Origin: an uncultured Bacilli bacterium
GTDB lineage: Bacteria > Bacillota_I > Bacilli_A > RFN20 > CAG-449
Length of the DNA: 64,000 bases
Assembly (NCBI GenBank): GCA_947627505.1
Contig: CANQWG010000001.1
Coordinates: 9,216-73,215 of the forward strand
Reading direction: 5' to 3'
Both the position numbers and the translations under genes were made by a program. Each line of letters starts with the position of its first letter. Position 1 is the stretch's first letter. The notes below the pieces were generated by a model. It did not search any database, was not told where the DNA came from, and saw only the letters and a list, made by a program, of their open reading frames with translations. This document shows, in pieces, positions 29,214-61,618 of this stretch.

Positions 29214-29238
29214 TGCATACAAAAGGATGAAATGAAAA

Positions 29239-30099: not shown

Positions 30100-30262
30100 T
30101 TTTAAATAGTAAATAATAGATTCTTATCTTTTTTTCGATGCAAAAAATGTAATTATATACTATTATTCGGCGTAAAAAATGTAGTATAGTACGAAAATTC
30201 GCTGTAATTTGTGTAAAACAAGTGCTATACTATATTTGAAAATCGAATAGGAGGAAAAGCCT

Positions 30263-31558: not shown

Positions 31559-31589
31559 AAAGATAAAAATTTTCAAGAGGTGACCATAA

Positions 31590-32342: not shown

Positions 32343-32385
32343 TATTTATGCTGATTAATAGAATTGGAAAAATCTTGATAAGATT

Positions 32386-33684: not shown

Positions 33685-33718
33685 ATGAAAAATAATTATT
33701 CAAAAGATTGAATCGAAG

Positions 33719-34048: not shown

Positions 34049-34051
34049 TAT

Positions 34052-34471: not shown

Positions 34472-34482
34472 AGTTTTTCACC

Positions 34483-36009: not shown

Positions 36010-36155
36010 CGTATTACCTCCTTTTACTAAACCATTGTCTATTATAGCAAAAGTGGATATCTCTTTTAATAAAAAATATCAAACAAGGATTTATTTATAC
36101 GTTAACATTGAAAAATTAAAAGTGATAAGTTAAAATCTTTTTGCTTAGATATTTT

Positions 36156-36232
<77 letters not shown>

Positions 36233-36258
36233 GTTTAAATTATTAAATAGTCAATTTT

Positions 36259-36335
36259 GTCCCAGTAGCTCAGCTGGATAGAGTACCGGTTTCCGAAGCC
36301 GTTGGTCGTAGGTTCGAATCCTATCTGGGACACCA
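36259..36335 (+). tRNA. tRNA-Arg (anticodon CCG)
   Basis: Cloverleaf: acceptor GTCCCAG/CTGGGAC, anticodon loop TTCCGAA, CCA. Confidence 0.85.
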
Positions 36336-36522
36336 ATCCCAATCTCTGGTAAATTACATAGGTTGGGATTTTTATTTATAAAAAATCTATATAAATTAAA
36401 AACACTTGTACAATTCATTGCCAAAATCTTAAGATTACCTAATTAACGTTATATTAACATTTATAATACTCGGGCTTGGAATTTTAATTTTTTTTTGTTA
36501 AAATCTATTTTGTTAAAAATAT

Positions 36523-36605
36523 GCCCTCTTGGCGGAACTGGCAGACGCGCTAGACTTAGGATCTAGTTCTCACGAGTGCGGGTTCAAATCCCGTGGAGGG
36601 CACCA
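36523..36605 (+). tRNA. tRNA-Leu (anticodon TAG), long variable arm
   Basis: Acceptor GCCCTCT/GGAGGGC, anticodon stem CTAGA/TCTAG with loop CTTAGGA, long variable arm, CCA. Confidence 0.85.
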
Positions 36606-36618
36606 TTTGTTATTAAAT

Positions 36619-36640
36619 GCCCTATTTCTAGGGTTTTTTT
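36619..36640 (+). terminator. Rho-independent terminator downstream of tRNA-Leu(TAG)
   Basis: Hairpin GCCCTATTTCTAGGGT followed by T7. Confidence 0.6.
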
Positions 36641-36890
36641 ATTCTCACGTAAAGGAATTGTAAGGGAAAATTTTAATGGTTCAAATTTTTAGATTTGTAA
36701 AATACATCTCACACTTATGTTATAGCCTTGGTGGTTTGCATTCTTTTGACATTTATTAAAAACGAATAGATTCACCTAAAAATAGGATTTTTTGAAATTC
36801 GTTTTTAATATCAAAACTATCTTAATTTGACAAAAAGACTTAACAATAATAAAATTGAATTACTAATTTTAATAAAAACTAGGAGATTTT

Positions 36891-37157
36891 ATGGATTATA
36901 TATACTATACAAAAAATACTTGTTCTAAAAGAATTCAAGTATCACTAGATGGTAATGTTGTTAGTAGCGTGAAATTTTTAGATGGTGGATGTCCTGGAAA
37001 TTTACAAGCTCTTCCTCGCTTGGTTGCCGGTATGACTGTGACTGTAGAGGAGGTTGAAAAAAAATTAAGTGGTATTAACTGTGGATATCGTGGCACTTCT
37101 TGCGCTGATCAATTATCAAAAGCGGTAAGAGAAGCATATCAAAAACTGCATTCATAA
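36891..37157 (+). CDS. TSCPD-domain small protein (TIGR03905-like, 4-Cys)
   Basis: 88 aa with GGCPGNLQAL and GYRGTSCADQL motifs. Confidence 0.5.
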   Translation: MDYIYYTKNTCSKRIQVSLDGNVVSSVKFLDGGCPGNLQALPRLVAGMTVTVEEVEKKLSGINCGYRGTSCADQLSKAVREAYQKLHS

Positions 37158-37177
37158 ATTTAAAATTTGGTGTCATT

Positions 37178-37618
37178 ATGGAAGAGTATTTAAAATTAGA
37201 AGGCCAAATTTGCTTTCCGCTTTATGTTTGTTCAAAAGAAATTATTAGAAAATATAAACCATTTCTAGAAGAATTAAATTTAACATATACCCAATATATT
37301 ACGATGTTGGTGCTTTGGGAAGTTGAAAGCATCAATGTTACAGATTTAGGTGAAAGACTTTACCTTGATTCAGGAACATTGACACCCTTGTTGAAAAAAC
37401 TTGAAACTAAAGGTTATATAACTAGAAAAAGAGGCAATGTCGATGAGCGGAATTTGATTGTGACAATCACTGAAAAAGGTTTGGCTTTAAAAGAAAAGGC
37501 AAAGCCGATTCCATGGCAACTTGCTTCTTATGTAAAACTAGAAAAGGAAGAGGTTGTTGCGTTATATAAAATTTCACGCAAATTGATGAATGCTTTGCAA
37601 GATAAAAAAAGGGACTAA
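37178..37618 (+). CDS. MarR-family regulator (OhrR-like)
   Basis: LTYTQYITMLVLWE…LTPLLKKLETKGYITRKR is a classic MarR/OhrR wing-helix. Confidence 0.7.
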   Translation: MEEYLKLEGQICFPLYVCSKEIIRKYKPFLEELNLTYTQYITMLVLWEVESINVTDLGERLYLDSGTLTPLLKKLETKGYITRKRGNVDERNLIVTITEKGLALKEKAKPIPWQLASYVKLEKEEVVALYKISRKLMNALQDKKRD

Positions 37619-37685
37619 CTTGAGTCACCTTTTTTTATAAAAGCATCTATAATAAAAAAAGCCTATTTACTAGGCGATTAATAAT

Positions 37686-37771
37686 TGGTGCCGCTGGTCG
37701 GACTCGAACCGACAAGGATGCACTCCGCTCGATTTTGAGTCGAGTTTGTTTACCAATTTCAACACAGCGGC
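37686..37771 (-). tRNA. tRNA-Leu (anticodon CAA), long variable arm
   Basis: The reverse complement gives acceptor GCCGCTG/CAGCGGC, anticodon stem CTCGA/TCGAG with loop CTCAAAA, a long variable arm and CCA. Confidence 0.85.
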
Positions 37772-37874
37772 ATTTCGCAATGAGCATTCATATTTTACCA
37801 TATTCTATTTTTAAATCAATAAAATTTCTAGGATTCTATTAGATTACTTTGATGAGGAGACGAGGTGATATAGT

Positions 37875-38813
37875 ATGAGCAAGCATCGAATTATTTTAAA
37901 AGAAATCGCTGAAGAAGTAAACTATTCCATTAACACCGTTTCAAGAGCGCTTCGCGATTGTGTCGACATTAGCGATCGAACTAAAAAGATCATTCGCGAA
38001 AAAGCAATCGAATTAGGATATTACATTGAAAAAAAACCACTTTATACGCGTATAAAGAATCGTCCGCTTATCGCCTTTGTTTATAATAATTTTTTCGATT
38101 ATTATTTTATCAAAATGTCAGATATAATACTTAAATATTTTGAAGATAAATATGAGTCGGTATTTATCTTTAGGCAAATCAAGAAAGAAAAAATCGGTTT
38201 GGATGATTTGAAATTTTTAATGGATAATGATGTAGAAATCATCATATCTTATATTAATTTTGAAAAAGATGTTTTGAATTTTGTTGAATTATATGGTCTT
38301 ACAGTGGTGCTAATCGGTTTTAATTCGCGCTTTTTAAAATGTAATTGTGCTTATTGTGACGAAAGGAAAAAAATAAATTTGGCAGTCGACTATTTCCTAA
38401 AACAACGTATTCACAAAGTGTATTATATTTTGGATTCTGATCTTTTGAAAGCAAAAGAAATGAAAGATCTATTTAATAAAAAATATTTAAAAAAAACTTT
38501 GGGAACAAGTGTGGAATATATTGATCTTAATCATTTTGAAGATCAACTTAATGAAAACACACTGCATTCTAAAGATGGCTTTTTATGTTCAAGTAGCGTT
38601 AGTGTTGAAAAAATAAAAAAATTGAAAAGTATAAAAAATAATCTTATCTTTATTATAAACGATAATTTTGAATGTGCGGATTTTAATGTAGTTAGTGTTA
38701 CTTTAAATTATGAAGAAGTTGCAGAAGAAATATGCAATATTGTGTATAAACTTTTAGAAGGTAAAAAAGATATTTATCATAAAATAATATATGATGTTTA
38801 TATAAAAGAATAA
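37875..38813 (+). CDS. LacI-like transcriptional regulator
   Basis: N-terminal HTH IILKEIAEEVNYSINTVSRALRD. The C-terminal domain is divergent. Confidence 0.55.
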   Translation: MSKHRIILKEIAEEVNYSINTVSRALRDCVDISDRTKKIIREKAIELGYYIEKKPLYTRIKNRPLIAFVYNNFFDYYFIKMSDIILKYFEDKYESVFIFRQIKKEKIGLDDLKFLMDNDVEIIISYINFEKDVLNFVELYGLTVVLIGFNSRFLKCNCAYCDERKKINLAVDYFLKQRIHKVYYILDSDLLKAKEMKDLFNKKYLKKTLGTSVEYIDLNHFEDQLNENTLHSKDGFLCSSSVSVEKIKKLKSIKNNLIFIINDNFECADFNVVSVTLNYEEVAEEICNIVYKLLEGKKDIYHKIIYDVYIKE

Positions 38814-38888
38814 GAGCGAAAAGATTTAGCAAACTAATCGAAACACTTGATTTTTCTTTTTATAAAAATTATTATAAAAAAGCCTTTT

Positions 38889-38964
38889 GCCGACATAGCT
38901 CAATTGGCAGAGCAATTGATTTGTAATCAATAGGTTGGCGGTTCGATTCCGTTTGTCGGCACCA
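38889..38964 (+). tRNA. tRNA-Thr (anticodon TGT)
   Basis: Acceptor GCCGACA/TGTCGGC, anticodon stem ATTGA/TCAAT with loop TTTGTAA, T-loop TTCGATT, CCA. Confidence 0.8.
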
Positions 38965-39166: not shown

Positions 39167-40321
39167 TTATTTAAAAATTTTATCAATGAGACCAACGGTT
39201 TCGTTAGGAAATATATGTGAATAAGTATCTAAAGTTTCTTTAACAGAACTGTGCCTTAAATGCTTGCTTACAATTAAAGGAGATATACCTGCATTTATCA
39301 TTCGTGAAGCGCAACTATGTCTTAAGCCATGAAATTTTATATGCGATATATTAGCATCTTTAGCGTGCTTATCCATTATTCTTCTAATAGTTGTTCTAGA
39401 AGTGTGTTTATGACCGAAAAACATATAATCATCATCTGTGGCATACATATCTTCTTTTAGTTTTATTAAATCATTTGTTAGATCTTCGGACATAGAAACT
39501 GTTCCGTGACTACTAGCGGTTTTAGCATCATCTAAATTTCCGCTGCTATCCATGCTTTTGTTTATATTGATTGTTTTTGCTATTGGATTAAAATCACTCC
39601 ACTTAAGTGGTATAAGTTCACCAATTCTTAAACCGCAAACATATGTCGTTTTAAATAATAATCTCCAAATATCATCTTTTTCGAAAGTAGCGTAGAATTT
39701 ATCCCATTCTTCGTTGGTCCAAAAAGATAATGATTCTTTACTTGATGAAATAGATTCCCTAATAGGTTTAATCAATACTTTTAATTTTCTATATAGTTCA
39801 TAAGATATATATTCATGGTCGGATGCATATTCTAACATATTTTTTAATAGTAAGAGTATTCGATTTTTTCTTTTTGACTTAATTGTTTTAATGTTTATAA
39901 TTTTAGCTTTAAAATTTTCTATTGTATTTATCGTAAATGCTTTTTCTAACGATAAAGAAATTGAAAAGTTAGGCAAAATATATTTCTTAATCATTAAATT
40001 TTTATTGTAAGTAGTTTGTGTTTTTAGCATTGATTTGCACTCGGTTATAAATAATTTAGATAATTCATAAAGCGTTATAGAAGCTTCAGAGTGCAAATAT
40101 AATTTCCTTCTTTTTTTATCTTTTTCTATTTCTTCAGCTTCTATTGCTTGGACAAACTTTTTGCCACGTTCTTTTGTCCATTCTTTATTGTATATACTAA
40201 TTGTTTTAAACGTTCCATCTGGTAATTTTAAATTATAACATATAAAATATCTTTTTCTTGATTTGTTGTAGCAAATACTCATTGTTTTTTCCTCCTTATT
40301 TTTGTTATAATAGAGGAGCAA
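39167..40321 (-). CDS. Phage tyrosine integrase (site-specific recombinase)
   Basis: 384 aa. The C-terminal catalytic region HGLRHSCASRMINAGI…LRHSSVKETLDTYSHIF carries the R-H-R-Y signature. It sits next to tRNA-Thr. Confidence 0.85.
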   Translation of the reverse strand: MLLYYNKNKEEKTMSICYNKSRKRYFICYNLKLPDGTFKTISIYNKEWTKERGKKFVQAIEAEEIEKDKKRRKLYLHSEASITLYELSKLFITECKSMLKTQTTYNKNLMIKKYILPNFSISLSLEKAFTINTIENFKAKIINIKTIKSKRKNRILLLLKNMLEYASDHEYISYELYRKLKVLIKPIRESISSSKESLSFWTNEEWDKFYATFEKDDIWRLLFKTTYVCGLRIGELIPLKWSDFNPIAKTININKSMDSSGNLDDAKTASSHGTVSMSEDLTNDLIKLKEDMYATDDDYMFFGHKHTSRTTIRRIMDKHAKDANISHIKFHGLRHSCASRMINAGISPLIVSKHLRHSSVKETLDTYSHIFPNETVGLIDKIFK

Positions 40322-44057: not shown

Positions 44058-44967
44058 AGCCCAAAAATATTATTGGTTCAAGCTAAAATTATCCTTTTTG
44101 GATAGTCCCAAAGTAGATTTTCTAATGTCGCAAAATGGTGGAGCTAATTATGTAGTGATTTACCAAATGCTTTGTTTGAAAGCGATTAACACAAACGGTA
44201 AATTAGAAACATCTGTGAAAGAATGTAGAATCAAATGGGACGACGCTAAAATACAGCGTGAATTAAAGTACTTTGAAATAGACACAATACGAATCGCCAT
44301 GACTCTATTCCTACAACTCGGTTTAATCGTTCCTGATGAAGAAGGTATACTTCAAATTCAAGATTTTAGCGAGCTTGTCGGTTCTGAAACCGGTGCTGCT
44401 ATTGAAAAAAGAGAGCAAAGAAAAAGAATAGACAAAGGGATAGACAAAGGGATAGACAAAAGAATAGACAAAGGGATAGACAAAGGGATAGACAATGTCT
44501 ATCCAGAGTATAGAGATAAGAGTATAGAGTATAGATATAAGAATATAGAGAATATAGATAATATAAATAATATATATAATACTTTAGAAGATAAAAAAGA
44601 TAAAAAAGATAAAAAAGATAAAACCCCTGACGAGGTGTCAAAAAATCCCTTCATAATATTTCTTTTGTCGAAAAATTTTTTTACCAAAAAAGATTATATC
44701 GAAATTCCACTCATCGAAGAGTTTTACGATTCACTGCTTGAGGGCTATTCGTTAAAATCACCTGAATGGATACAACAATATAAAAATATTTTCATAGCAA
44801 CCAAATATATGGTTACCTATGCTTCTAACCCAGAGATTATTGAAGATAAATTAAGTTACATTAAAACCGCAATTAGCGATTCACTTAATAGAAATTACAA
44901 TAATTCGGATTGGATGGAAGAGTGCGAACGCTATTTCGAAACTCATCCGGAACTAAAACGTTATTAA
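44041..44967 (+). CDS. Phage replisome organiser / replication initiator with internal iterons (origin of replication)
   Basis: The N-terminus MNNKNKAQKYYWFKLKLSFLDSPKVDFL resembles phage_rep_org_N proteins. The coding sequence holds 12-bp tandem repeats that translate to DKGIDKGIDKRIDKGIDKGID. Confidence 0.55.
   Translation: MNNKNKAQKYYWFKLKLSFLDSPKVDFLMSQNGGANYVVIYQMLCLKAINTNGKLETSVKECRIKWDDAKIQRELKYFEIDTIRIAMTLFLQLGLIVPDEEGILQIQDFSELVGSETGAAIEKREQRKRIDKGIDKGIDKRIDKGIDKGIDNVYPEYRDKSIEYRYKNIENIDNINNIYNTLEDKKDKKDKKDKTPDEVSKNPFIIFLLSKNFFTKKDYIEIPLIEEFYDSLLEGYSLKSPEWIQQYKNIFIATKYMVTYASNPEIIEDKLSYIKTAISDSLNRNYNNSDWMEECERYFETHPELKRY
44428..44626 (+). repeat. Iteron cluster and AT-rich unwinding element. 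There are about 5.7 copies of ATAGACAAAGGG (44428-44499), then TATAGAG-type AT-rich repeats, then 3 copies of GATAAAAAA (44591-44626).
   Basis: Tandem repeats are directly visible, in a lambda-O-like arrangement with the origin inside the initiator gene. Confidence 0.7.
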
Positions 44968-47111: not shown

Positions 47112-47558
47112 ATGGCAAAACAAGAAAACAAGGTAATTAAAACAGCCGCAGATTCGGTCAGAAAAATTTTATTTAACTTTGATCTGGAAATGACTGCAAG
47201 TGTTGGGGAGTTGAAACTCGCAAGAGCAAAAACTCTCCGCTATAAAAATCCTAAAAATAATCGAGAAAAAGAGATTTACACAAACGCTCGCATCGATGAA
47301 GAGAAATTAAAAGTATTTATTCAACAATTGACGGCCGGGAAAAATGAAACGTGGCAGTCCTTAGAACAAATTTTAGAAATCTATAATCCAAAATACAAAA
47401 AGATTTGGTTAATGTATTTTATCAGCCAATATACTTACGAAGAAATCGCCCAAAAAACTAATTATTCCGTAGATGGTGTTAATTTTATAATTCAAAAATT
47501 AAAAAAAGACTTAATTGATTTAAACCTAATTGCAAAGGAGGATAACGCAAGTGAGTGA
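47112..47558 (+). CDS. Sigma-70 region-4-like / ArpU-like late transcription regulator
   Basis: …YTYEEIAQKTNYSVDGVNFIIQKLKK is a region-4-type HTH. Confidence 0.4.
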   Translation: MAKQENKVIKTAADSVRKILFNFDLEMTASVGELKLARAKTLRYKNPKNNREKEIYTNARIDEEKLKVFIQQLTAGKNETWQSLEQILEIYNPKYKKIWLMYFISQYTYEEIAQKTNYSVDGVNFIIQKLKKDLIDLNLIAKEDNASE

Positions 47559-48148: not shown

Positions 48149-48538
48149 ATGACAATAGAACAATTAAGAACCCAAGACAAAAAACATGCGCAAGTAATTG
48201 CAAATTATCTAATAAAAAGAATTGAAACCGACCAATGCTTAAAAGAAAAAATTGAAACAACAACTAAAACATTAAAAGGATGTGTTAAATATTGTAAAAA
48301 TGAGGCGCGTAAACAAGCTGAAGATGGATGTGCAATGATTCCTGATGATGAAGTGTTTAAGTGGGCAGTTCATTATTTTCTTGAAGATTCAATCAAAGAA
48401 AATGAAATACCATCTATTCCTAATTCTAAAATTAACAATGAAAAAAATAATACTCAAAAATTTACTTCTGATACTAAAAAAGATAAAGATGTAAAAAAGA
48501 AACTTATCGAGCAATTAACATTATTTGACTTAGGTTAA
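48149..48538 (+). CDS. Hypothetical phage protein
   Basis: ORF only. Confidence 0.35.
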   Translation: MTIEQLRTQDKKHAQVIANYLIKRIETDQCLKEKIETTTKTLKGCVKYCKNEARKQAEDGCAMIPDDEVFKWAVHYFLEDSIKENEIPSIPNSKINNEKNNTQKFTSDTKKDKDVKKKLIEQLTLFDLG

Positions 48539-48539
48539 T

Positions 48540-49865
48540 ATGGAACCATTTGATTACAATCCAATACTAGAACTTGTTGACTATCCAATTACGCTAGAAG
48601 ATAAGATTAAAGAATTGGGATATTATTTTTCAAGTTATTTAGAATATGATGCAAAGAAAAAAGAATTTATACGACATGTTTATGCAAGTCGAACCACGAA
48701 AAAAAATGGTTTTGAGTGCATGGAAATTTTTAGAGAATATGAAAGCGGCTTAAAAATAGGAAAAAATTTTTATTATTGCTCATACGGAAATGCTGCAGGG
48801 ATGCACGTTGTTTGGAAAAACACAAATTCATTTTATTACGGAAATAAAGAAAGGATTAAAAAATTTGTTGAATGTGATGATTTTATAAATATTGGAATGT
48901 TTCGGTCGTTTCAAATGACTACATTAGAGGAAATTGTAAGTAATGATTTAAATTTGAGATTTTGTCGATGGAACAATCACGTTGATGCTTTAAATTATAT
49001 TAAAATTTACAAAAGATATCCGATTGTAGAAATGCTAATGAAACTTGAATTATATCACTTAGTCTTTAATGAAAAATGCCTTTTGTTAATGATAGAAAGT
49101 AAACAATTTTGCAGATGGCTTTTTAAAAATAGAGATGCGATAAAAAAAGATCAAATTTCTTTTCCAGCTTTAAAATCTGCGTTTAAAAACGGGCAAGATG
49201 TTGCTAAATATAATGAGAAAATTATTAAAAAAAGATTGGATGCTAAAAGAATATCAGATGAGTTAGGCACTCAACTTTATCATCTTATAAAAGATGTATG
49301 TAAAGATTTTAATAAGGCGCAAAAATATGCTCAAATGGTTGGTAAAGAAAATTATCGAGATTATTTAGAAGCTTGCAAATTTTTGAAATTAGATTTATCT
49401 GATACAAAAGTTTTATATCCAAAAAATTTTAAATACTGGCATGATTTTTACGTTAATCAAATGACCTCAGCAAAAAACACAATAATAGATCAAAATATAT
49501 TAAAACAGGCCAAGCGATATAAATATTTGCTTTTAGATTTAGAAAAATTAGTTTTAATTTTTCCTTCAAAAACTCAAGATTTTATCGATGAGGGCAACGC
49601 ATTACATCACTGTGTAGGTCGTATGAATTATAACGAAAAGATGGCTAAAGGTGAATCGCTAATTATTTTCATTAGAAAAAAAACAGCACCAAACAATCCA
49701 TTTGTTACGATGGAATATAATCCTAAAAAAAAGAACATACAGCAAATTTATGGCAATCATGATGAACCACCTACTGCAGAAGTTAAAAATGAAATTTATA
49801 ACTTTTGGCTTCCAATGGTGCAACAAATAAAAAATAAGAAGTTAAAGGAGAAAAAAATAATATGA
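48540..49865 (+). CDS. PcfJ-like protein
   Basis: 441 aa; a weak resemblance to plasmid and phage PcfJ-domain proteins. Confidence 0.4.
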   Translation: MEPFDYNPILELVDYPITLEDKIKELGYYFSSYLEYDAKKKEFIRHVYASRTTKKNGFECMEIFREYESGLKIGKNFYYCSYGNAAGMHVVWKNTNSFYYGNKERIKKFVECDDFINIGMFRSFQMTTLEEIVSNDLNLRFCRWNNHVDALNYIKIYKRYPIVEMLMKLELYHLVFNEKCLLLMIESKQFCRWLFKNRDAIKKDQISFPALKSAFKNGQDVAKYNEKIIKKRLDAKRISDELGTQLYHLIKDVCKDFNKAQKYAQMVGKENYRDYLEACKFLKLDLSDTKVLYPKNFKYWHDFYVNQMTSAKNTIIDQNILKQAKRYKYLLLDLEKLVLIFPSKTQDFIDEGNALHHCVGRMNYNEKMAKGESLIIFIRKKTAPNNPFVTMEYNPKKKNIQQIYGNHDEPPTAEVKNEIYNFWLPMVQQIKNKKLKEKKII

Positions 49866-49934: not shown

Positions 49935-50692
49935 ATGTTTGAATTAAACAAAATTTACCTAGGAGACGCTTACGAGCTTATTAAAAAAATTCCCGACAAA
50001 AGCATTGATTTGATTGTTACTGATCCACCATATGAGATAAATACGATGACAGGCGGTGGAAATTGCATTATCAATGGAACGTTGGCAAAATGGAGCCAAA
50101 AAACTTGTTTTAAAGACTTGGGAGAAAACAAATTAAATATCGGAATAGATGAAAGTATTTTAAATGAATTTATGCGAATTTTAAAGTTACCAAACATTTA
50201 TATATGGTGTAATACAAAGCAAATATATAAATATTTAAAGTTTTTTGTAGGGAAACACAATTTGAATTTTAAACCTATAATTTGGAACAAAATAAACGCT
50301 ATGCCATTATGCGGAGGAAAATATCTTGATGATTGCGAATATTGCTTATATTTTTACAAAGGTATTCGCTTAAATGCTTCTTACGATACGGCAAAAACTG
50401 TTTATTATGAGCCGATAAATTATAACGATAAAAAACTTTTTTCACATCCGACAATTAAACCATTAAATATTATTAAGAATCTTATTATCAATTCTTCTAA
50501 CGGGGGGGGGGTATAATTCTAGATCCGTTTATCGGAAGCGGAACTACAGCAGTAGCGTGCAAGGAGCTTGGGCGTAACTATCTAGGTTTTGAAATCAATG
50601 AAAAATATTATCAAATCGCCGTTGATAGGATTAACGGTACAACTCAAAAAGAAAAGAAACAAGGAATAAAACAATTAACATTATTTGATTAA
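49935..50692 (+). pseudogene. Beta-class DNA methyltransferase (N4-cytosine or N6-adenine) interrupted by a frameshift in a G10 homopolymer (50502-50511)
   Basis: The upstream frame has DPPY motif IV (IVTDPPYEIN) and ends …SSNGGGV*. The downstream frame continues GIILDPFIGSGTTAVACKELGRNYLGFEINEKY (motif I, FxGxG). The frame is restored by +1 G or -2 G. Confidence 0.75.
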
Positions 50693-54670: not shown

Positions 54671-54910
54671 TTACTCCTCTTTTTTAATGTCATTAAGTAT
54701 TAACTTTCTTATATAATCGGCTTTGTTTGGAACACTATCAAGTTTATTGAGAATTTCTATGTCGTTTATAAGATTATATCTCACGCTGATGCAACGAGTA
54801 TTCGCTTGGTGCCAATGGTTGATTCGGGTTAAAATAGCTTTTTTCCTTTGCTTTTCAGTTTTGTACTTAACGTTATGTGCTCCGCCTCTAGTTTCCTTTT
54901 TTTGGGGCAT
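54671..54910 (-). CDS. Small basic ribbon-helix-helix-like DNA-binding protein; last gene of the antisense island
   Basis: Basic N-terminus plus DSVPNKADYIRKLILNDI (RHH helix 2-like). Confidence 0.3.
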   Translation of the reverse strand: MPQKKETRGGAHNVKYKTEKQRKKAILTRINHWHQANTRCISVRYNLINDIEILNKLDSVPNKADYIRKLILNDIKKEE

Positions 54911-55166
54911 ATTTTTCTTGTCTCCTTAGTAATTTTTGTTTTGCTTCGTCAAGTTGTTCTTGTTCTAATTCGTAAGGCGGTCTACTTACGAAAATTTGTT
55001 TAACAAATTTTTTACCTTTTTTTGGCACCCAATGGCAACAAGAGCAAATATTATGTATTTCAATTATTTTCTCTGCATATTCCCTAGAGCGCGAGTAAAT
55101 AGTCATTCCTAATTTTGATGATTCGTCTATAAAACTATAGGCATTTATTTCAAATAATTCTTCCAT
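54888..55166 (-). CDS. Hypothetical protein with a CxxC…H cluster
   Basis: ORF in the antisense island; contains ICSCCHW. Confidence 0.3.
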   Translation of the reverse strand: MEELFEINAYSFIDESSKLGMTIYSRSREYAEKIIEIHNICSCCHWVPKKGKKFVKQIFVSRPPYELEQEQLDEAKQKLLRRQEKYAPKKGN

Positions 55167-55263
55167 AGCATATTGTCCTTTATTAGTTTAGCATTTTTAT
55201 TTTTTATTTACTACTTAATTTGTTTAATGCTTTAGTTGCATTTTCTTATCCTCCTTATAATGA

Positions 55264-55443
55264 TTATCTTTTTTGTTCTTTATTTAACTTGTCTGCGTAT
55301 TCTTGTGCTTCTTGATATGTATTAAAGATTCCTCCGCTATATTCCACGTTTCCAGAATGTATAGTTTTATTTGTATCCTTGATTCTTTGTACTTGATAGA
55401 CATCGCGTCCAATATAATTAGTTGTAACTTTCCACTCACTCAT
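55264..55443 (-). CDS. Small hypothetical protein (59 aa), not in the ORF track
   Basis: Read by hand: MSEWKVTTNYIGRDVYQVQRIKDTNKTIHSGNVEYSGGIFNTYQEAQEYADKLNKEQKR, with RBS GGAGGA upstream. Confidence 0.4.
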   Translation of the reverse strand: MSEWKVTTNYIGRDVYQVQRIKDTNKTIHSGNVEYSGGIFNTYQEAQEYADKLNKEQKR

Positions 55444-55467
55444 TTACTAATCCTCCTTATAAAATTC

Positions 55468-55638
55468 TTAAATGGTCGTAATGCTTGTTAGTGTTATTTC
55501 ATCAGATTCGCAGTCCCTAGAAGTATTTATTAGTAAAATACATTCATTATTGTATGTTTGATCCGGACAGTTTTGCGCGATCCATTCGTCGTACTCTTTT
55601 TGATTTTTAAAAGTTTTATCAATAATATATTCATTCAT
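55468..55638 (-). CDS. Small hypothetical protein (56 aa), not in the ORF track
   Basis: Read by hand: MNEYIIDKTFKNQKEYDEWIAQNCPDQTYNNECILLINTSRDCESDEITLTSITTI, with RBS GGAGAAATAG upstream. Confidence 0.35.
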   Translation of the reverse strand: MNEYIIDKTFKNQKEYDEWIAQNCPDQTYNNECILLINTSRDCESDEITLTSITTI

Positions 55639-55653
55639 CTTTCTATTTCTCCT

Positions 55654-55923
55654 TTACACCATAATATTTACTATTATTAAATCTTTGCTTGATTCATATT
55701 CGATACATGTAAGATACACTTCAAAACCTTTGATAAATAAGTGAATATCATCAGCAAATGCTTTTTTTTTCACGTCAACTTTAAATCCGTTTTTTTTCAG
55801 GGCTTCAAAGACTTCTCCGTTATATTTAGAGTATGAATATTCTTTTTTTAAAGAATAATAACCATCATCTTCTTTGAAGCCTTTATATCGCTTTAAATAA
55901 TTCTTTAAATCTTTTCTTTCCAT
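55654..55923 (-). CDS. Small hypothetical protein (89 aa; start at MERKD)
   Basis: The internal Met has AAAGGAG 8 nt upstream. The longer annotated start would overlap the neighbouring gene. Confidence 0.4.
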   Translation of the reverse strand: MERKDLKNYLKRYKGFKEDDGYYSLKKEYSYSKYNGEVFEALKKNGFKVDVKKKAFADDIHLFIKGFEVYLTCIEYESSKDLIIVNIMV

Positions 55924-55945
55924 CGTTCTTGCTCCTTTAGACTTG

Positions 55946-56572
55946 CTAATAAACTCGGCTAATGCCACCGTTTTTTGCGACAATACCGATTTTGCCAAGA
56001 TCGCTAAAATCTGGAACATCAAGATTATAAACGTAAGAGTAGGGAAACATCATTCCTTCGCTATCTGCTTTTAAGTCTTCTTGCTCCATTTCCCATTCTT
56101 CTGGATATTGAGAGATGAACAGAAGGGATAAGCAAAGACCAAAATTAAATCTTGTCAGTTGCGCATGATAGACTAGCGCGTGTCTTTGATCTTCAAATTT
56201 TTTGATGATATCTACAAACACTTGTTTATTTTTTACCAAATAAAGAATCCCATCAAAGATTTTATTTTGGCGTTCAGAGTAATAAACGGTGTTATCCGTT
56301 TCAAATTCTTTAATAACATTTGGAAGTAATTTTAAAGATTTCATTCTATTGATTGCTTCCGCTTTCTGAAAGATTTTCAAAATTTCATAATACTTTTCGC
56401 CATCCAAAGAGGGAATATAAATTCCCTCGATTTCGTCATTGTCTAAATAGTGAATCTTTAATTCTTTTGTTTCGCAATTCAATTCGGCAAAAATTATTTG
56501 TTCGTTCTCTTCGAAGTCAAAATAATTATATAAATCATTTGATTGGTCGGTCGTTAAAAAAATTGTTTCCAT
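55946..56572 (-). CDS. Hypothetical acidic protein (208 aa)
   Basis: ORF in the antisense island. Confidence 0.45.
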   Translation of the reverse strand: METIFLTTDQSNDLYNYFDFEENEQIIFAELNCETKELKIHYLDNDEIEGIYIPSLDGEKYYEILKIFQKAEAINRMKSLKLLPNVIKEFETDNTVYYSERQNKIFDGILYLVKNKQVFVDIIKKFEDQRHALVYHAQLTRFNFGLCLSLLFISQYPEEWEMEQEDLKADSEGMMFPYSYVYNLDVPDFSDLGKIGIVAKNGGISRVY

Positions 56573-56598
56573 TGTTGAGTCTCCTTTCTTTTAGCGAG

Positions 56599-56943
56599 TT
56601 AATCTATGAAGTCCTTTTCGACAACTTCGATTTTATCGCCACAATAGATCATGGGCTTTTCATTTTTAAACCAATTAAGCAAAACTTGTGTTTCATTGAA
56701 GCATTCATAAATTTCGGTGCTATAGAAGCATTCGCCGTATTCGTTAGTAATTTTAACTTGATAAGGTCTAGTTACTTCGTAAATATCGATTGTAATGTCT
56801 TCGTCTTCATAATGGATTGGCTTATGCTCTAGATCATCTTCATATTTATCTTTAAGATCTTCGATCAATCCTTCAAATAACCAAGGATTTTCTTTGTAAA
56901 ATTCCTCATATTTTGGGGCTACTTTAATATCAATTTTTCTCAT
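56599..56943 (-). CDS. Hypothetical acidic protein (114 aa)
   Basis: ORF in the antisense island. Confidence 0.45.
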   Translation of the reverse strand: MRKIDIKVAPKYEEFYKENPWLFEGLIEDLKDKYEDDLEHKPIHYEDEDITIDIYEVTRPYQVKITNEYGECFYSTEIYECFNETQVLLNWFKNEKPMIYCGDKIEVVEKDFID

Positions 56944-57022
56944 TTTAATTTCTCCTTTTTTCTTTCTTATAATTCTTTCTTTTAAAGTGGTGTTTTTAGT
57001 GTTATCGCCTCACTTTTGATGA

Positions 57023-58132
57023 TTATTCTTTTATGTCTAGAATTAAATTAGTTGCTTTTCTGGATTGGCCAATGGTGCTTAAAATGTTGTGCTTGATTCC
57101 TTCCTTTAGTCCTTGACCCCAACTCTTTAAATAAGCGATGCTGTTGTTAAGTAGATCATCGGTCATTATTTTTAGTGAAATCATGGAATAAAGGCTGGAT
57201 AACTCTGCGACAAGTTCTTCTTTGCTGTAAGTAGTAGAAGCGAATCCACAACTGCTAGTCAGGGTTTTCCGATTCAGAAGCGAGTGATGCCCTGTTGAGT
57301 GGGCGAACTCATGCAACATCGTTTGGTAGTAATTTTCAATCGATTCAAATTGGTTTTTAGTCGGAATTGTGACGCTATGATCAGAAGGGCGATAGAACGC
57401 GCAATTTTGTGCGACTTCTTTAAAAGTTAAGTGGGCTCTTTCAATGTAAGATTCTTTAATTTTTTCCACTTTTTGAATGCGCTTTAAATCATTCTCTGGC
57501 TGTTCTGCCTCATCTTCAATCTTCCACAACTCTTTAACATTCAAGCCGCAATCTTCCGCTTTGAATAAATATTCCAATACATATTGAAATTTTCGATATT
57601 TAAATTGTTGCTTGATATTATCCCATTCTAAACTTTCATTAAATTCTTTTTCGTTGCCTTTAGAATCGGTGTATTTGAATTTAACTTTGACTTCTAATTT
57701 TACACCGGCGATAAGTTGTTCTATTTCTTCTTTTAATTCTTCTTTGTCTTTCATTTCTTTTTCTAGTGCTTCTCGCTCGATAGTTGTTAAGTATTTGTAA
57801 AATTTACATGCTTTGTAGTTTGGCGTGCCTTTAGCGCCTTTGTTTAGATGCAATTTGTGCTCTTTGATTTGCTTAAAAGTGACATAGAATCCAGCCGGCA
57901 CAAAGAGTGGATCATATTCTTTCATCGTGTAAGTGTTAATTGCCAGCATGTCATCCATTACTAGGTCGTAAATACTTCTTGTTGTCTGATTGGTTGTAGT
58001 GGTCCAAGTCTTGCGCCACGCTTTAACGTTGCCAGATTCAATTATTTCGATAATTTTTTCGGCAGTTGCAACGTTCATTTGGTAGTCGTTCTTGACCGCC
58101 GGATTTTTAGATTTTAAATTTTCTTTCTTCAT
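57023..58132 (-). CDS. ArdC-like anti-restriction protein (N-terminal ssDNA-binding domain plus C-terminal HExxH metalloprotease)
   Basis: N-terminal …ESGNVKAWRKTWTTTT (DUF1738-like) and C-terminal MLHEFAHSTGHHSLLNR zincin motif. Start at MKKENLK. Confidence 0.55.
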   Translation of the reverse strand: MKKENLKSKNPAVKNDYQMNVATAEKIIEIIESGNVKAWRKTWTTTTNQTTRSIYDLVMDDMLAINTYTMKEYDPLFVPAGFYVTFKQIKEHKLHLNKGAKGTPNYKACKFYKYLTTIEREALEKEMKDKEELKEEIEQLIAGVKLEVKVKFKYTDSKGNEKEFNESLEWDNIKQQFKYRKFQYVLEYLFKAEDCGLNVKELWKIEDEAEQPENDLKRIQKVEKIKESYIERAHLTFKEVAQNCAFYRPSDHSVTIPTKNQFESIENYYQTMLHEFAHSTGHHSLLNRKTLTSSCGFASTTYSKEELVAELSSLYSMISLKIMTDDLLNNSIAYLKSWGQGLKEGIKHNILSTIGQSRKATNLILDIKE

Positions 58133-58183
58133 TTGGGTTTCCTCTTTCTTTCTGGCGTTTGTTTTGGTAGAATAGAGGCACAA

Positions 58184-59508
58184 ACGCCGTAAGGCCTTTG
58201 GGAATAGTCTTTTAATTGCTGGCAGGCATTTTAAGGCTATTTTTTAATTTAAGAAATATATATAAAACGCTATATAAAGCGTGTAAATATCCTAATTACA
58301 CAGGGGGACGATTTATTCTATTAGGTTTTCGCCTCTAATATTTGGCGCCGTCCGCGTCTATCGTGTCGTTAATTTCATTTGGCAGTGAAACGATATAACA
58401 TCTACCAAATATACAAGTTTGCAAAGAACGATTTTTTTGTTGTGTCTCCACAATTTGTTAAAGTCCCTTGCAATTCAGGGACTTATTGATTATAATTTAT
58501 TTGTGTTTTAGATAGGGCGATAAGTTATTTATCGTATCTATCTTTTTTTACTTCTACAATAATTTTTAGAAGTATAAACAAAGTAATAATAGTTATAATA
58601 CTATCCATACTCTGATTTACTCCAATAAATCAATAAGTGTAAATTGCAAAGAACCGTTAACGAGATTAACATTTTGCAATGCCTTTCTCATCGCTAGGTT
58701 GCCCTAACGACAAACACATCTTAATTGACTTTGAAATATTAGTCAAGCACAATTTTTCAATAATCGCTTTTTTGCGCAAAATTATATTACATGTAATATA
58801 AAAAAATTAAAAAATTTTTTCTTTTCTTTATTTATTTCTTTTACTTTTTATGGTTTTTTCTTCTTTCGATTTTTGGCTTCTGGAAGCAATCAGAGCGAAC
58901 AAAGAGCACAATAAAAAGCGCATTAGAAGCAACAGTCACAACGCGCCAAAGTTATAATTTTTTATATATTTCTTATCTTTAGATAATCTATTACTTAGTC
59001 TTTAAGTTTACTTAATCTATTAGTTATTTAATTATATAAATATATTTTAATTATTATTAAATATATAATACTTACTTTAGATACTATAAATGTATAGAGA
59101 ATATTATAAAAGCCGGAAATAGACATCGCTTGAAAAAGTAAAAAAAAAGAAATTAGTTATTATTAAATAACTAAAAGTTTTTAACGTGCACAATCTCTAT
59201 GAATTGCTCCAAAACAATAAAAAGCCCTAAAAATAAGCACTTTTTAAAAAGTGTAAGGGAATTTTTAAGAATTTACTAGTTGCAAGGGTATTAAATAGTA
59301 CTAGTAATATAAGACATCTATCAATCAACCAAGACCAACACCCACCCCCCATACCGGCGACAAAGGGGGAGGGTGGCAAAAATAAAACAATGTCTCAAAA
59401 TAAATTTTTTTCATTTTTAAGAGAAACATAGGAGGGTGTCTTACTACCTTTTTTCTACCTAGCACTTAGAATGGAGCGAATTTTAAAATTAAGTTGAGGT
59501 GAAGTGTC
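58184..59508. other. 1.3-kb AT-rich non-coding region between the antisense island and the terminase genes. It contains hairpins and short repeats and is a candidate pac/cos and promoter region.
   Basis: No ORF over 60 aa on either strand. Hairpins at 58465-58490 (AAGTCCCT…AGGGACTT) and 59340-59380 (CCCACCCCCC…GGGGGAGGGTGG). TTACTTA-type repeats at 58990-59040. Confidence 0.5.
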
Positions 59509-59871
59509 ATGAGCAAAAAGATCAAAAGTCAATTGAATATGTTGCCGAACTATGAGCAAAACATGTATAGAGGCATTAAAAATAGTACAGTTGATGAATT
59601 AAAAGAAAATTCTCTTATTAGGCGTTCTTTATGTATGGCACTTGGGTCACCTGTAGACATGAAGCTAGAAACAGGAGAAATAGCTAGTGTTACGGTTGCA
59701 GATGTAGTTGTTGCGCGCACGCTTCAAGACGCAATTCAAAAACCCAGCGCATCCAAATTAAAAGATTTAGCTTTAATTACCGGCGAATTAAAGGAAAAGG
59801 CGGAAGTTACATTTAATTCACCCGAAAAACTATTTGGAGACATTGTAATTCATAATGACAGCAATAACTAA
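59509..59871 (+). CDS. Putative terminase small subunit
   Basis: 120 aa, directly upstream of and overlapping the large terminase gene. Called on position only. Confidence 0.35.
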   Translation: MSKKIKSQLNMLPNYEQNMYRGIKNSTVDELKENSLIRRSLCMALGSPVDMKLETGEIASVTVADVVVARTLQDAIQKPSASKLKDLALITGELKEKAEVTFNSPEKLFGDIVIHNDSNN

Positions 59872-61618
59872 GACATTGGCAGAAAGGGAATTATTCAATT
59901 ATGATTCAGATTTGGTTATACACACCTCGATAGGCGATGTACCGGTATATAAATTTATCGAAAGATTTCTTTACATTAGAACAAAGGAAGGATCAATCGT
60001 TCAATTTATTCTTAATGATGAACAAGTGGACTTATACAAGACTATTTGTTTGCAAAGGAGAAAAAAGCAACCGGTTCGAATTAACATTTTAAAGGCAAGA
60101 CAAATTGGATTCTCGACATTTATTGCGGCGATATACTTTTGCTTAACGATATTTTCGCCAAACAAAAGAGCTCTTATAATTGCTGACACTCAAGAGCATG
60201 CCACGAATTTGTTTAGCAAGTACAAGCTATTTTATGCAAGATTACCTGAGGAATTAAAAATTCCAAAAAAAGCAAGTAACGCAAAGGAACTGATTGTCGA
60301 TTATGGAGAAGGCAGCACTAGTGAAATAAAAATTGTATGTGAGGGCGAAAACGCTGCACGTTCAGATACTGCACAGTTCTTGCATAATTCAGAAGCAGCC
60401 TTTTGGAAAGACTTGAAAGGAACGATGGCGTCACTAAACCAAGTTGTCGATATTACAAATCCGGATTCATTTATCATATTTGAGACGACCGGTAATGGAT
60501 ACAACGATTACAAGGTAAAGTGGGATCGAGATTTCAGTGGTATATCGGATTATTTAGCAAGATTTTATCCTTGGTTTGGCAATCCAAAGTATTCAACTCA
60601 ATATCATGGCTTTACGTTATTACCACATGAAGAAGAGTTAGTTAGTAAGTTCAATCTCTCGCTTAATCAAATTGCATGGTATAGGCTTCAATATAATGCG
60701 GTCGAAGGTGATATTGATTTATTAAGACAAGAATATCCTTCCACGCCTACTGAAGCTTTTAGATCCACTGGAAATTCGGTGTTTGATTTGGCGCTGATTC
60801 AAAGAAGAAAAGATGAGCTATTAAATGAACAACCGCTTCTTATAGGAAGATTTGTTTATGAACATCAACACTCAATTGATGGAATGAAAATTACGTTATT
60901 GAATAATGGTTTGGAAGATTTTGTGCAATCCAAATTAGGAGAGATCCGAATTTACAAAAAAGTTGATCCGACACATTTCTATGTAATAAATTGCGATCCC
61001 GCGATGGGCGGTGAAGATTTCTATGCTATTCAAGTAATGGACAATATTACCGGGGAACAAGTCGCGGTTTATCATCAGAACAAAGCTAATGACGATGATG
61101 TCGCCTACAACATGGTTTGCTTGGGTAGATATTATAACAACGCACTAGTGTGTGCCGAAACAAACACAAACTCCTATGTTCTTCAAATTGTGGATAAATG
61201 CGGCTATAAGAACATTTATCAGGATAAAGATTTTGATGCACTTACAGATCGTTACCAAGATCGATTCGGATATAAAACAAAAACGACCAATCGAAACGGA
61301 ATGATAGCCATGTTCAAGGAAGCCTTTAGAGATAATTACAAAATAATCAACGACTACGATACTTTATGTGAAATGGAGGCATTTCAAATTATTAGAAATG
61401 AAAATACACAAAAAGAGAAGGCTGTTGCATTATCGGGATTCCATGACGACTTAGTAATGGCGATGTGTGGGCTATTTCTAATTAGAAGTGAACAAAAATT
61501 TATCCCTAGTAAAAGCAAGGAATATGTGAATAAAGAGATGGACAATCCATTCCGTAAGGTTAAAAAAATAGAAAGAGAGGTTTATCAAAAATGGGATCAA
61601 GAAAAATTCTCAATATAA
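59855..61618 (+). CDS. Phage terminase large subunit
   Basis: 587 aa. Typical size and position before the portal, with an ATPase-like N-terminus and a nuclease-like C-terminus with acidic residues. Confidence 0.6.
   Translation: MTAITKTLAERELFNYDSDLVIHTSIGDVPVYKFIERFLYIRTKEGSIVQFILNDEQVDLYKTICLQRRKKQPVRINILKARQIGFSTFIAAIYFCLTIFSPNKRALIIADTQEHATNLFSKYKLFYARLPEELKIPKKASNAKELIVDYGEGSTSEIKIVCEGENAARSDTAQFLHNSEAAFWKDLKGTMASLNQVVDITNPDSFIIFETTGNGYNDYKVKWDRDFSGISDYLARFYPWFGNPKYSTQYHGFTLLPHEEELVSKFNLSLNQIAWYRLQYNAVEGDIDLLRQEYPSTPTEAFRSTGNSVFDLALIQRRKDELLNEQPLLIGRFVYEHQHSIDGMKITLLNNGLEDFVQSKLGEIRIYKKVDPTHFYVINCDPAMGGEDFYAIQVMDNITGEQVAVYHQNKANDDDVAYNMVCLGRYYNNALVCAETNTNSYVLQIVDKCGYKNIYQDKDFDALTDRYQDRFGYKTKTTNRNGMIAMFKEAFRDNYKIINDYDTLCEMEAFQIIRNENTQKEKAVALSGFHDDLVMAMCGLFLIRSEQKFIPSKSKEYVNKEMDNPFRKVKKIEREVYQKWDQEKFSI

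Follow-up and report, generated by a model that had tools for sequence, protein, structure and literature searches.

A conserved gene-free stretch between an anti-restriction gene island and the terminase genes of a temperate phage may be a composite control region

Why should a prophage keep 1.3 kb of DNA without a gene directly upstream of its terminase genes? The stretch in question, positions 58184 to 59508 of a 64,000-nucleotide segment of contig CANQWG010000001.1 from an uncultured Bacilli bacterium (the whole segment is called the window, or W, below), lies between a leftward gene island with an ArdC-like anti-restriction gene at its end (54671-58183) and the rightward terminase genes. 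An earlier note on this DNA had placed the stretch between an antisense island and the terminase genes of the late operon, which agrees with our annotation, and had held the region to be regulatory, which is borne out by a conserved leftward promoter and a conserved G/C repeat beside terS. We give about even chances to the explanation that the gap is a composite, modular control region, lying where two transcription units of a temperate phage diverge. This is supported by the gap itself and the order of its modules, both of which are kept among relatives with identities of 48 to 96% in the large terminase subunit (TerL). The anatomy of the region, its conservation, the covariation in one of its RNAs, and the conservation of its promoters and terminators are direct observations, and the coordinates of the features are given in Table 1.

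The long noncoding stretch was confirmed: no start-to-stop open reading frame (ORF) of more than 50 amino acids (aa) occurs on either strand, and the longest stop-to-stop frames, of 64 and 61 codons, have no start codon or ribosome-binding site (RBS) and are not conserved. Recoded stop codons were considered, and the flanking genes read normally under table 11. The GC content is 29%, with a trough of 18 to 21% at 58800-59250, so that the context once called A/T-only is better called A/T-rich. For comparison, we collected some 20 independent loci related to this one (contigs from ERR10663710/ERR10663711 are 100% identical to the window). They comprise a rabbit-gut Clostridia metagenome-assembled genome whose TerL is 96% identical (L001), Logan, ENA, and JGI contigs found via TerS and TerL homologues (L002-L009 and L049-L057), contigs matching the DNA pattern of the G/C repeat (L010, L013, L016, and L018), and IMG/VR contigs found by a TerL profile, with TerL identities of 48 to 54% (L032-L037). 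Wherever upstream DNA suffices, a gap of 0.7 to 1.4 kb without a conserved gene is kept. Its length from gene calling is 1164 nt in L049, 915 nt in L050, 931 nt in L051, and 1436 nt in L054/L055, and from ORF lists it is ~0.98 kb in L001 and 0.7 to 1.3 kb in L032/L035/L036. Across the gap from terS, the leftward block of the relatives often contains ArdC and sometimes an AAA_5 ATPase pair; ArdC was found again beside the gap in L049, L051, and L054. Because the same gap recurs in independent relatives, it is a trait of the clade and neither junk nor an accident of one genome; it is conserved across a group of gut Clostridia prophages. The window has lost genes that relatives carry in the gap, namely, a 116-aa ORF (L001/L049) and a ribbon-helix-helix (RHH)-like ORF (L054), and this loss, together with an acquired cassette, accounts for a gap of 1.3 kb rather than ~1 kb.

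Conserved small ORFs, which the earlier note had regarded as counterevidence to its reading, were mostly not found in the gaps of the relatives. There is a lone 80-aa gene call in a purine-rich block of L056, but W, L001, L049, and L051 interrupt this frame with stop codons or a frameshift. Hidden coding was rejected for the stop-to-stop frames across the G/C repeat and a T-rich block, as relatives show frameshifts or stop codons, and likewise for a possible 13-codon leader peptide (MSQNKFFSFLRET), which relatives have frameshifted or stopped or keep for only 3 or 4 codons. A search of Rfam 15 at gathering score yielded only tRNAs elsewhere in the window, Rfam at E <= 10 over 58000-59700 yielded nothing credible, a tRNA scan found nothing in the gap, and the gap showed no DNA similarity to deposited phage and plasmid collections.

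The G/C inverted repeat that had been noticed earlier turned out to be real and conserved beside terS in all relatives. In the window it forms 5 bp, an A.A mismatch, and a further 5 bp (-18.9 kcal/mol; z score, -1.9), and it folds into a hairpin in 18/18 distinct variants, with energies of -8.6 to -19.4 kcal/mol. Without exception, poly-C makes up the left arm and poly-G the right arm, the lengths of the C run and G run covary (6/5, 5/4), and the loop of 9 to 23 nt often contains ATACCGNCG or ATGGCACGG. The poly-G arm is followed by 7 to 9 nt, then by TATAAA(Y)AATGTCYC, and then by AAATTTTTCCCA(W)TTTT. Each half of this promoter-like motif occurs once in the 64-kb window, and most relatives have a looser version of the first half a single time on the plus strand upstream of terS. 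Hairpin and motif, together called the core below, lie 149 to 303 nt upstream of terS in the 18 variants, with the motif tandemly duplicated in L050 and L052. If AACAAT (59386-59391) were the -10 element, the center of the hairpin would fall near -40. Besides, TANAAT-N6-GAGG(T/A)G is found immediately before terS in eight lineages, and a UACC(U/C) segment of the terS leader is predicted to pair with the Shine-Dalgarno sequence GAGGUG in 6/6 sequences, without covariation (RNAalifold). The RNAalifold consensus of this leader consists of the G/C hairpin and the anti-Shine-Dalgarno helix only, with zero compensatory pairs. As an intrinsic terminator, the G/C hairpin has no U tract in the window, where the stem is followed by CAAAAAUAAAAC, nor in 15/18 variants; T5-7 follows it directly in L050, L052, and L053 only, making it a true intrinsic terminator there. 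The pattern of the G/C repeat was also matched in two unrelated contigs of 47 to 53% GC (L024, 914-939, and L030, 425-450), followed by repeated ATGTCCCCATATGTC units, probably by coincidence.

The core is preceded by a zone of hairpins that ends in a terminator-like stem. The two hairpins before this stem vary in sequence among relatives while their pairing is kept; the first, at 59153-59174, stays a hairpin with altered sequence in L001, L003, L006, L049, and L051. At the position of the terminator-like stem, L003, L006, L018, L035, and L049 have canonical A-tract/hairpin/T-tract terminators with compensatory changes, which are bidirectional, whereas the structure in the window is weaker. 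Two AAGGG boxes next to this stem are kept in L001, L003, L006, L010, L018, L032, L034, L049, and L051, and the C/A-rich, G/T-poor tract that follows (~59310-59338) is clear in close relatives and A/T-rich instead in L034 and L050.

We infer from these features that the core is the control site of the late operon and may act as an activator-dependent promoter, given its position, its uniqueness, its insulation by the upstream terminator, and its lack of a -35 element. That the arms stay poly-C and poly-G while true terminators drift in sequence points to sequence-specific recognition rather than to pairing alone, and the motif is duplicated in tandem in L050 and L052, as can happen with binding sites or promoters. 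We also count in favor of a control site that the core survives beside host-like genes in L018, within a phage-like leader of ~330 nt. An activator-dependent promoter upstream of terS drives the entire late operon in Gram-positive phages, and the activators bound there are small, basic, early-encoded proteins (PMC3753634, PMC3152322). A candidate for the late-gene activator acting at the core is a basic protein resembling sigma-70 region 4, encoded at 47112-47558, which scored against NCBIfam TIGR02937 (E 1.9e-8, below the cut-off), PHROG 1740 "sigma factor" (E 5.5e-6), and Pfam Sigma70_r4_2 (E 5e-5). A look for its co-occurrence with the core found no relatives in viral contigs, and no match to the RinA, ArpU, or LtrC family was found. 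The arrangement would resemble the RinA/ArpU/LtrC/Alt systems in having one control site that adjoins terS on its upstream side and heads the whole packaging and morphogenesis operon, no good -35 element, conserved boxes upstream, and a small basic early protein with a helix-turn-helix like that of sigma region 4. In those systems, however, the activator gene lies immediately before terS with a short spacer, whereas here ~1 kb of noncoding DNA and the diverging anti-restriction island take that place; no activator gene adjoins terS, and the sole candidate lies 12 kb upstream, unlike in Ltr-type systems. The latter also have A/T-rich direct repeats, whereas here a G/C inverted repeat is dominant, accompanied by the two AAGGG boxes and by the motif duplicated in L050/L052. 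Readings of the motifs as sigma-54, sigma-B, sigma-H, or T4 late promoters were judged by eye and rejected, as spacing or partner elements are not conserved.

L018 is a 149-kb human-gut contig in which (reverse strand, 4320-4725) the final ~330 nt of the terS leader, with the core, directly adjoin a terminator and the host-like genes to which it belongs; the leftward island and the rest of the control region are missing. The junction could mark the edge of the prophage, or else a deletion, inside the noncoding region.

On the opposite side of the gap, a sigma-70-type promoter (P_left) faces the ArdC island. Its -35 element, spacing, and -10 element are kept in seven lineages (W, L001, L006, L049, L051, L054, and L056), reading TTGACG-17-TAAGAT in L001, TTGACA-18-TATTAT in L006, TTGACA-18-TATAAT in L054, and TTGACA-18-TAAAAT in L049, L051, and L056. 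Divergent promoters for the antisense island and the late operon had been proposed earlier; the leftward one is conserved, whereas no late promoter of the classical sigma-70 kind was seen. In L056/L057, the RBS of the first leftward gene follows P_left directly. Between 35 and 135 nt upstream of P_left sit a perfect palindrome and a T-rich block, the latter recognizable in L006, L049, L051, L056, and L057 and not coding, since W, L001, and L051 have stop codons within its frame. The palindrome may be an operator and the T-rich block a UP-like upstream activating region of P_left.

A noncoding RNA had been among the candidates of the earlier note. This idea is supported, though not at the hairpin noted there: the best RNA candidate is a four-helix structure (model R1) on the minus strand, in the leader of the leftward operon. 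Of the 33 pairs in the RNAalifold model from the window, L001, and L049, 10 changed on both sides yet remained paired, and 94.9% of cells are paired. The 10 compensatory pairs compare with 3.6 +/- 1.4 in shuffles (0/500 reach 10) and with 0 or 1 in slid controls, and the G.U pairs are compatible with the minus strand only. R1 begins ~50 nt downstream of the predicted P_left start in L001 and L049. It had no Rfam match at E <= 10, was absent from the other loci, and exact-pattern scans of viral contigs gave no further leader RNA; indeed, it is optional in the clade, being absent from L056/L057, where P_left abuts the gene. Between R1 and ardC the window has a terminator-like hairpin in the place of the 116-aa ORF of L001 and L049. 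The two structures overlap by "ACG", which is part both of the 5' arm of this hairpin and of the 3' arm of R1 helix 4. The 5' untranslated region (UTR) of the ArdC-like gene has one mismatch to L001 up to window position 58248. Like riboswitch and attenuator leaders, R1 is a conserved multihelix structure with covariation in a 5' UTR, and its last helix overlaps a terminator hairpin in the window; unlike them, it matches no Rfam family, the "expression platform" that follows is not the same in any two of the three examples, and R1 is optional.

Between R1 and P_left, the window carries an inserted cassette that is shared with L054, although the TerL proteins of the two phages are only 56% identical, and is missing from the closest relatives, L001 and L049. 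An 11-nt direct repeat occurs in the window at the left boundary of the cassette (58419-58429) and within its small ORF (58644-58654). No further copies were found in the window, the other loci, the phage and plasmid collections, or exact-pattern scans of viral contigs. The small ORF, of 23 codons and hydrophobic, has a good RBS and a counterpart in L054 (MLISLIVLCNLYLLIMWSKSDYG) with identical length and stop codon; with these two sequences in all, it is a candidate coding frame. On the plus strand, the strong hairpin of the earlier note (58465-58490) exists, here placed at 58461-58484 (-11.4 kcal/mol; z score, -3.8). It is joined by the best promoter match in the region (10/12), TTGCAA (58468-58473) and TATAAT (58491-58496) separated by 17 nt, and by a terminator stem at 58510-58543 followed by T7 (58544-58550; -13.8 kcal/mol; z score, -4.7). 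L054 keeps the -35 element, the 17-nt spacing, and the -10 element, and its terminator stem has one compensatory change, from CGATAA/TTATCG in the window to TGATAA/TTATCA. Thus, the cassette is predicted to yield a convergent antisense RNA of ~50 nt, which in both examples would overlap the 3' untranslated part, 50 to 100 nt past the small ORF, and not its RBS.

We compared the cassette with antisense-RNA-gated operons and type I toxin-antitoxin loci, such as P22 sar/ant-arc, pMV158 RNAII/CopG, Fst/RNAII, and bsrG/SR4. Like these, it would produce a short RNA of ~50 nt from its own strong promoter, ended by its own terminator and directed against an operon leader, with a small hydrophobic ORF and RBS upstream and, in L054, an RHH-like ORF downstream; unlike in these, the antisense RNA does not overlap the RBS of the small ORF. 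The RHH-like ORF of L054 (2255-2500, minus strand, ...YDKKAIKRLNIALHKVNDADIIEALENQSNKNGFIKEAIRYYLKNQSNN) has an AAGGAGA RBS and no canonical start codon and was missed by the gene caller.

The A/T-rich part in the middle of the gap evolves fast. It has TTAGATAATCTATTA at 58979-58993 with a copy differing by two mismatches at 59008-59022, and a 17-nt tandem pair at 58991-59024 (82% identical) is real. The TTACTTA-type repeats to which the earlier note had drawn attention are not significant (2 occurrences versus 0.46 expected; P about 0.08) and are poorly conserved. Other lineages have repeats of their own, which are significant in three: CTATT[TA]A occurs 12 times in L032 (1.0 expected) and 5 times in L036 (0.17 expected), and TAATAGTA 4 times in L003 (0.11 expected), these motifs having been picked after looking at the sequences. 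At the right edge, an ATTAT-AAATAGACA element is present in 13 lineages, that is, in all with the stretch available, and gives the minus-strand hexamers TATAAT, TACAAT, CATAAT, AATAAT, and GATAAT. Its AATAATGT motif is repeated rightward at the late core, 230 to 310 bp away. An invertible promoter between the inverted AATAATGT motifs was rejected, since all ~13 full-segment variants have one orientation, no invertase lies nearby, and contig breaks fall elsewhere. A small RNA between this element and the terminator was also rejected, only the terminator structure being conserved (window z score, -1.5).

Where transcription starts, which factor activates it, and how the parts work together is what we infer in the following scheme. 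A strong host-type promoter, P_left, would fire leftward to the ArdC island through a long modular leader. In the window, this leader would comprise first the acquired cassette, with its 23-codon hydrophobic ORF and convergent ~50-nt antisense RNA, and then the four-helix RNA, whose last helix may compete with the terminator hairpin before ardC as an attenuator-like gate. The middle part (58760-59260), with its operator-like palindrome, A-tract block, lineage-specific repeats, and terminator, would insulate the late genes, and the right part (59260-59508) would be the site from which the late operon of packaging and head genes is controlled. There, the poly-C/poly-G inverted repeat would take the place of the -35 element, followed by a -10-like TATAAA(Y)AAT and a conserved initial transcribed sequence, and a phage-encoded factor, perhaps the protein resembling sigma-70 region 4, would act at the core.

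Several points weigh against this composite scheme. The core has no recognizable -35 element, its -10 element could equally be assigned to TATAAA, to AAYAAT, or to the TANAAT that precedes the Shine-Dalgarno sequence by 6 nt, and the sigma-like candidate is subthreshold against curated cut-offs. R1 was derived from three fairly close sequences and tallied on those same sequences, and the small ORF and antisense RNA are known from two. Besides, the position and uniqueness of the core would fit a role in packaging equally well, and the T run after the hairpin in L050, L052, and L053 fits an RNA-level role, as a terminator. The former alternative is that the core (the G/C inverted repeat and AATGTCYC...AAATTTTTCCCA, possibly with the AAGGG boxes) is a pac site, to which TerS would bind and at which TerL would make the first cut of headful packaging. 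A terminase of the gp17 or Terminase_6 type and a P22-like portal are typical of headful packagers. TerL is here like T4 gp17, some members of its clade have Terminase_6N/6C domains, and the portal is P22-like, which suggests headful packaging by analogy; the core occurs once per genome, directly before terS, its conservation goes together with that of the terminase genes, and its motif is repeated in L050 and L052; and many assemblies break ~40 to 200 nt upstream of the hairpin. The contig ends of the relatives, however, scatter over >150 nt without a pile-up at one base, and they sit at the terminator and at the boundary of the hypervariable A/T-rich zone, where strain variation in assembly graphs would lead one to expect them. 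The site is also internal in several ~50-kb viral contigs, the putative 120-aa TerS has no family or structure match, and the core is near constant while TerS diverges to ~60% identity and beyond, which is not the behavior of a coevolving recognition pair. The pac site of SPP1 extends over the late promoters PL1/PL2 as well as the RBS and 5' end of gene 1, and repeated boxes flank the cut (PMC6316719, PMC4737164). This precedent of a packaging site within promoter and leader speaks for a pac site here, and both roles may be true together by the same overlap. Like the SPP1 pac region (pacL-pacC-pacR), ours is placed at the promoter, leader, and start of terS, is set in A/T-rich DNA, and has repeated boxes and a headful-type terminase and portal; on the other hand, it has no sequence similarity to the SPP1 region, spans ~1.3 kb, and has a G/C hairpin that SPP1 lacks. 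Given the SPP1 overlap, the T4-like TerL, and the P22-like portal, we regard pac as a serious and nonexclusive rival, even if an unlikely one. A cos site, also suggested before, is not supported, as the gp17-like TerL argues against it and there is no HNH gene near terS. The RNA-level alternative would have the late transcript start between the terminator and the C/A-rich tract, so that tract and hairpin form a leader element, the hairpin serving termination or antitermination, pausing, processing, or 5' stabilization and the anti-Shine-Dalgarno segment tuning terS translation. It agrees with the stable hairpin in 18/18 variants, with the joint changes in C-run and G-run lengths, with a few T.G oppositions that fit plus-strand RNA only, and with the UACC:GGUG pairing predicted in 6/6 sequences, and it is kept alive by the variants with T5-7, which make canonical intrinsic terminators, and by an upstream tract that is C/A-rich and G-poor like a Rho-loading site. 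It is at odds with the lack of compensatory changes in the G/C hairpin and the anti-Shine-Dalgarno helix, with arms that are never other than poly-C and poly-G, unlike nearby bona fide terminators, with the 15/18 variants lacking a U tract, with the absence of Rfam family matches, and with the absence of a conserved promoter between terminator and hairpin (TTGCAA at 59280 has no -10 element in L006 and L049); we consider it quite unlikely.

Two further alternatives concern the gap as a whole or its middle. Were the A/T-rich middle a second replication origin, like oriR of SPP1 and bound by the phage replisome organizer, one could understand its 18% GC, the iteron-like repeats of each lineage, the cumulative GC-skew minimum, the exact 12- and 13-nt matches between 44544-44588, next to the primary origin, and 59061-59104, and the recurrence of the half-iteron strings AATAGACA, GACAAAGGG, and ACAATGTCT; a precedent exists in SPP1, which has two origins ~13 kb apart (PMC6316719). 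The primary origin of our prophage has six 12-bp iterons, AA(A/G)G(A/G)ATAGAC, at 44422-44493, inside the replisome-organizer gene, and a weight matrix built on these six found 0 sites of >=8 bits in 58184-59508, versus 0.45 per kb elsewhere in the window, so that a second origin is not supported. Moreover, the window repeat TTAGATAATYTATTA has no copy at the origin within two mismatches, the 42 shared 9-mers are only modestly above A/T-rich control windows (maximum, 36), and the GC-skew switch is explained by the change of gene orientation there. We therefore hold a second origin to be very improbable, and the same applies to the view that the gap is mostly decayed coding sequence or mosaic filler without a function of its own. 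Decay would agree with the disappearance of the 116-aa and RHH-like ORFs from the window, the inserted cassette, and the fast divergence of the blocks 58870-58960 and 59040-59100. However, most blocks of the gap are conserved equally to or more than the neighboring genes, the order of modules lasts down to 48% TerL identity, and RNA covariation is present. Decay is thus largely refuted for the whole and holds only for those two fast-evolving blocks and the window-specific extra length.

The composite control region is best described as an extension of known kinds of phage regulatory regions and not as a new category. Two bolder readings, which we rated jointly and consider decidedly doubtful, go beyond this. 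In one, the poly-C/poly-G hairpin with TATAAA(Y)AATGTCYC-AAATTTTTCCCA would be an undescribed late-gene switch or packaging-initiation signal common to a large uncultured clade of gut Clostridia phages, its G/C repeat or cruciform being recognized by the sigma-like factor or by TerS. In the other, the leftward half would be a phage counterpart of the plasmid "leading region": the ArdC island, lying beside the packaging end, would be expressed first on entry, and its gate would consist of a novel structured leader RNA and the ~50-nt antisense RNA, possibly forming a type I toxin-antitoxin pair. Three defined candidates are now at hand in this TerL clade: the conserved ~75-bp core beside terS, the covariation-supported leader RNA before ardC, and the promoter-terminator pair of the antisense RNA, together with the small ORF. 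Should the core prove to be pac, it would define the starting point of transduction for these gut prophages, and if the RNAs control ardC, they would show how a phage gates an anti-defense gene. Current ideas are not overturned; known themes are carried to an unstudied phage group.

Table 1. Features of the gap and of genes discussed with it (window positions)
Feature	Positions	Strand	Basis or remark
Protein resembling sigma-70 region 4, 148 aa, basic, pI 9.1	47112-47558		Just before RusA, early operon
ArdC-like gene	57023-58183	minus	Pfam ArdcN and MPTase-PolyVal; probable ATG 58132
5' UTR of ArdC-like gene, 9-bp hairpin at 58154-58188	58133-58250	minus	-13.3 kcal/mol; z score, -4.7
Terminator-like hairpin (58267-58282) and U-rich run	58255-58282	minus	Terminator scan; -5.7 kcal/mol; z score, -3.2
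Four-helix structured RNA (R1), ~130 nt, leader of leftward operon	58280-58411	minus	RNAalifold covariation
Inserted cassette, ~270 bp	58455-58720	minus	~85% identical to L054 2525-2820
Predicted antisense RNA unit	58461-58550	plus	Hairpin, promoter, and terminator
Hydrophobic 23-codon ORF, MLISLTVLCNLHLLIYWSKSEYG	58601-58672	minus	RBS AGAAAGG at 58682-58688
P_left, sigma-70 type, TTGACT-17-TAAGAT	58718-58746	minus	Promoter scan; conserved
Perfect 20-bp palindrome, TTATATTACATGTAATATAA	58782-58801	both	Near-identical in L001; recognizable in L001, L049, L056
T-rich, near-pure pyrimidine block (A tracts on minus strand)	58808-58880		Near-identical in L001
A/T-rich core, 18-21% GC, short repeats	58960-59100		Fast-evolving; poorly conserved even in L001
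ATTAT(N)-~9 nt-AAATAGACA element	59102-59126		Minus-strand hexamer TATAAT (59108-59103)
Hairpins 59153-59174 and ~59191-59206; terminator-like stem 59225-59259, then AAUUUUU	59153-59266	plus	Folding
AAGGG boxes TGTAAGGGAAT (59252-59262) and TAGTTGCAAGGGTAT (59277-59291), then C/A-rich tract (~59310-59338)	59252-59338	plus	Conserved
G/C hairpin CACCC-A-CCCCC / loop CATACCGGCGACAAA / GGGGG-A-GGGTG	59339-59375	plus	All 18 variants
Promoter-like motif (TA)TAAAACAATGTCTC ... AAATTTTTTTCA	59380-59413	plus	In all relatives
Proximal terS leader	59442-59511	plus	UACC...CUACCU 59442-59462; TAAAAT 59484-59489; GAGGTG 59496-59501
Putative TerS, 120 aa	59509-59871	plus	ATG at 59509
TerL	59855-61618	plus	PHROG 2; T4 gp17-like

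The solved structures nearest to TerL are T4 and RB49 gp17 (E 1e-13), and TerL has 972 metagenomic relatives at E <= 1e-30 and an identity of at most 27% to deposited phages. The portal gene follows terL. The zone of the primary origin (44422-44620) also contains an inverted iteron copy, AATGTCTATCC, repeats of the AGAGTATAGA type, an A/T-rich stretch, and four copies of AAGATAAAA. The matches between 44544-44588 and 59061-59104 are TATAGAGAATAT and ATATATAATACTT, accompanied by TACTTTAGA; the order of the blocks differs between the two places, and the block at 59061-59104 is not conserved in L001.

Part of the window is host DNA, in which a CRISPR array and tRNA genes lie, and the prophage extends from ~38.9 kb onward. 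Six tRNA genes lie within 25112-38964 (three for Arg, two for Leu, and one for Thr), and the prophage is integrated beside the last of them (38889-38964), with the integrase at 39167-40321; this tRNA-Thr gene, which adjoins the integrase, is likely the attachment site. The prophage encodes a CI-like S24/HTH repressor, a Cro-like protein, YqaJ/RecT, the replisome organizer, SSB, RusA, PcfK/PcfJ, a DNA methyltransferase, and a DUF5131 protein. The PcfK- and PcfJ-like genes (48149-49865) and the ArdC-like gene are of kinds typical for leading regions of conjugative elements. In the CRISPR array (2983-5268), the longest ORF-free stretch of the window, ~35 copies of a 36-nt repeat (GTTTGAGAGTAATGTTAAATAAGGTATCTAATTAAC) alternate with spacers of ~30 nt, and these spacers gave no credible match to the prophage or its relatives. 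The phage DNA methyltransferase is split by a G10 homopolymer (50502-50511): the ORF at 49935-50516 stops just past the tract, and the DPFIGSGTT motif goes on in a different frame to about 50692. The tract could serve as a phase-variable switch, or it could stem from an error in sequencing.

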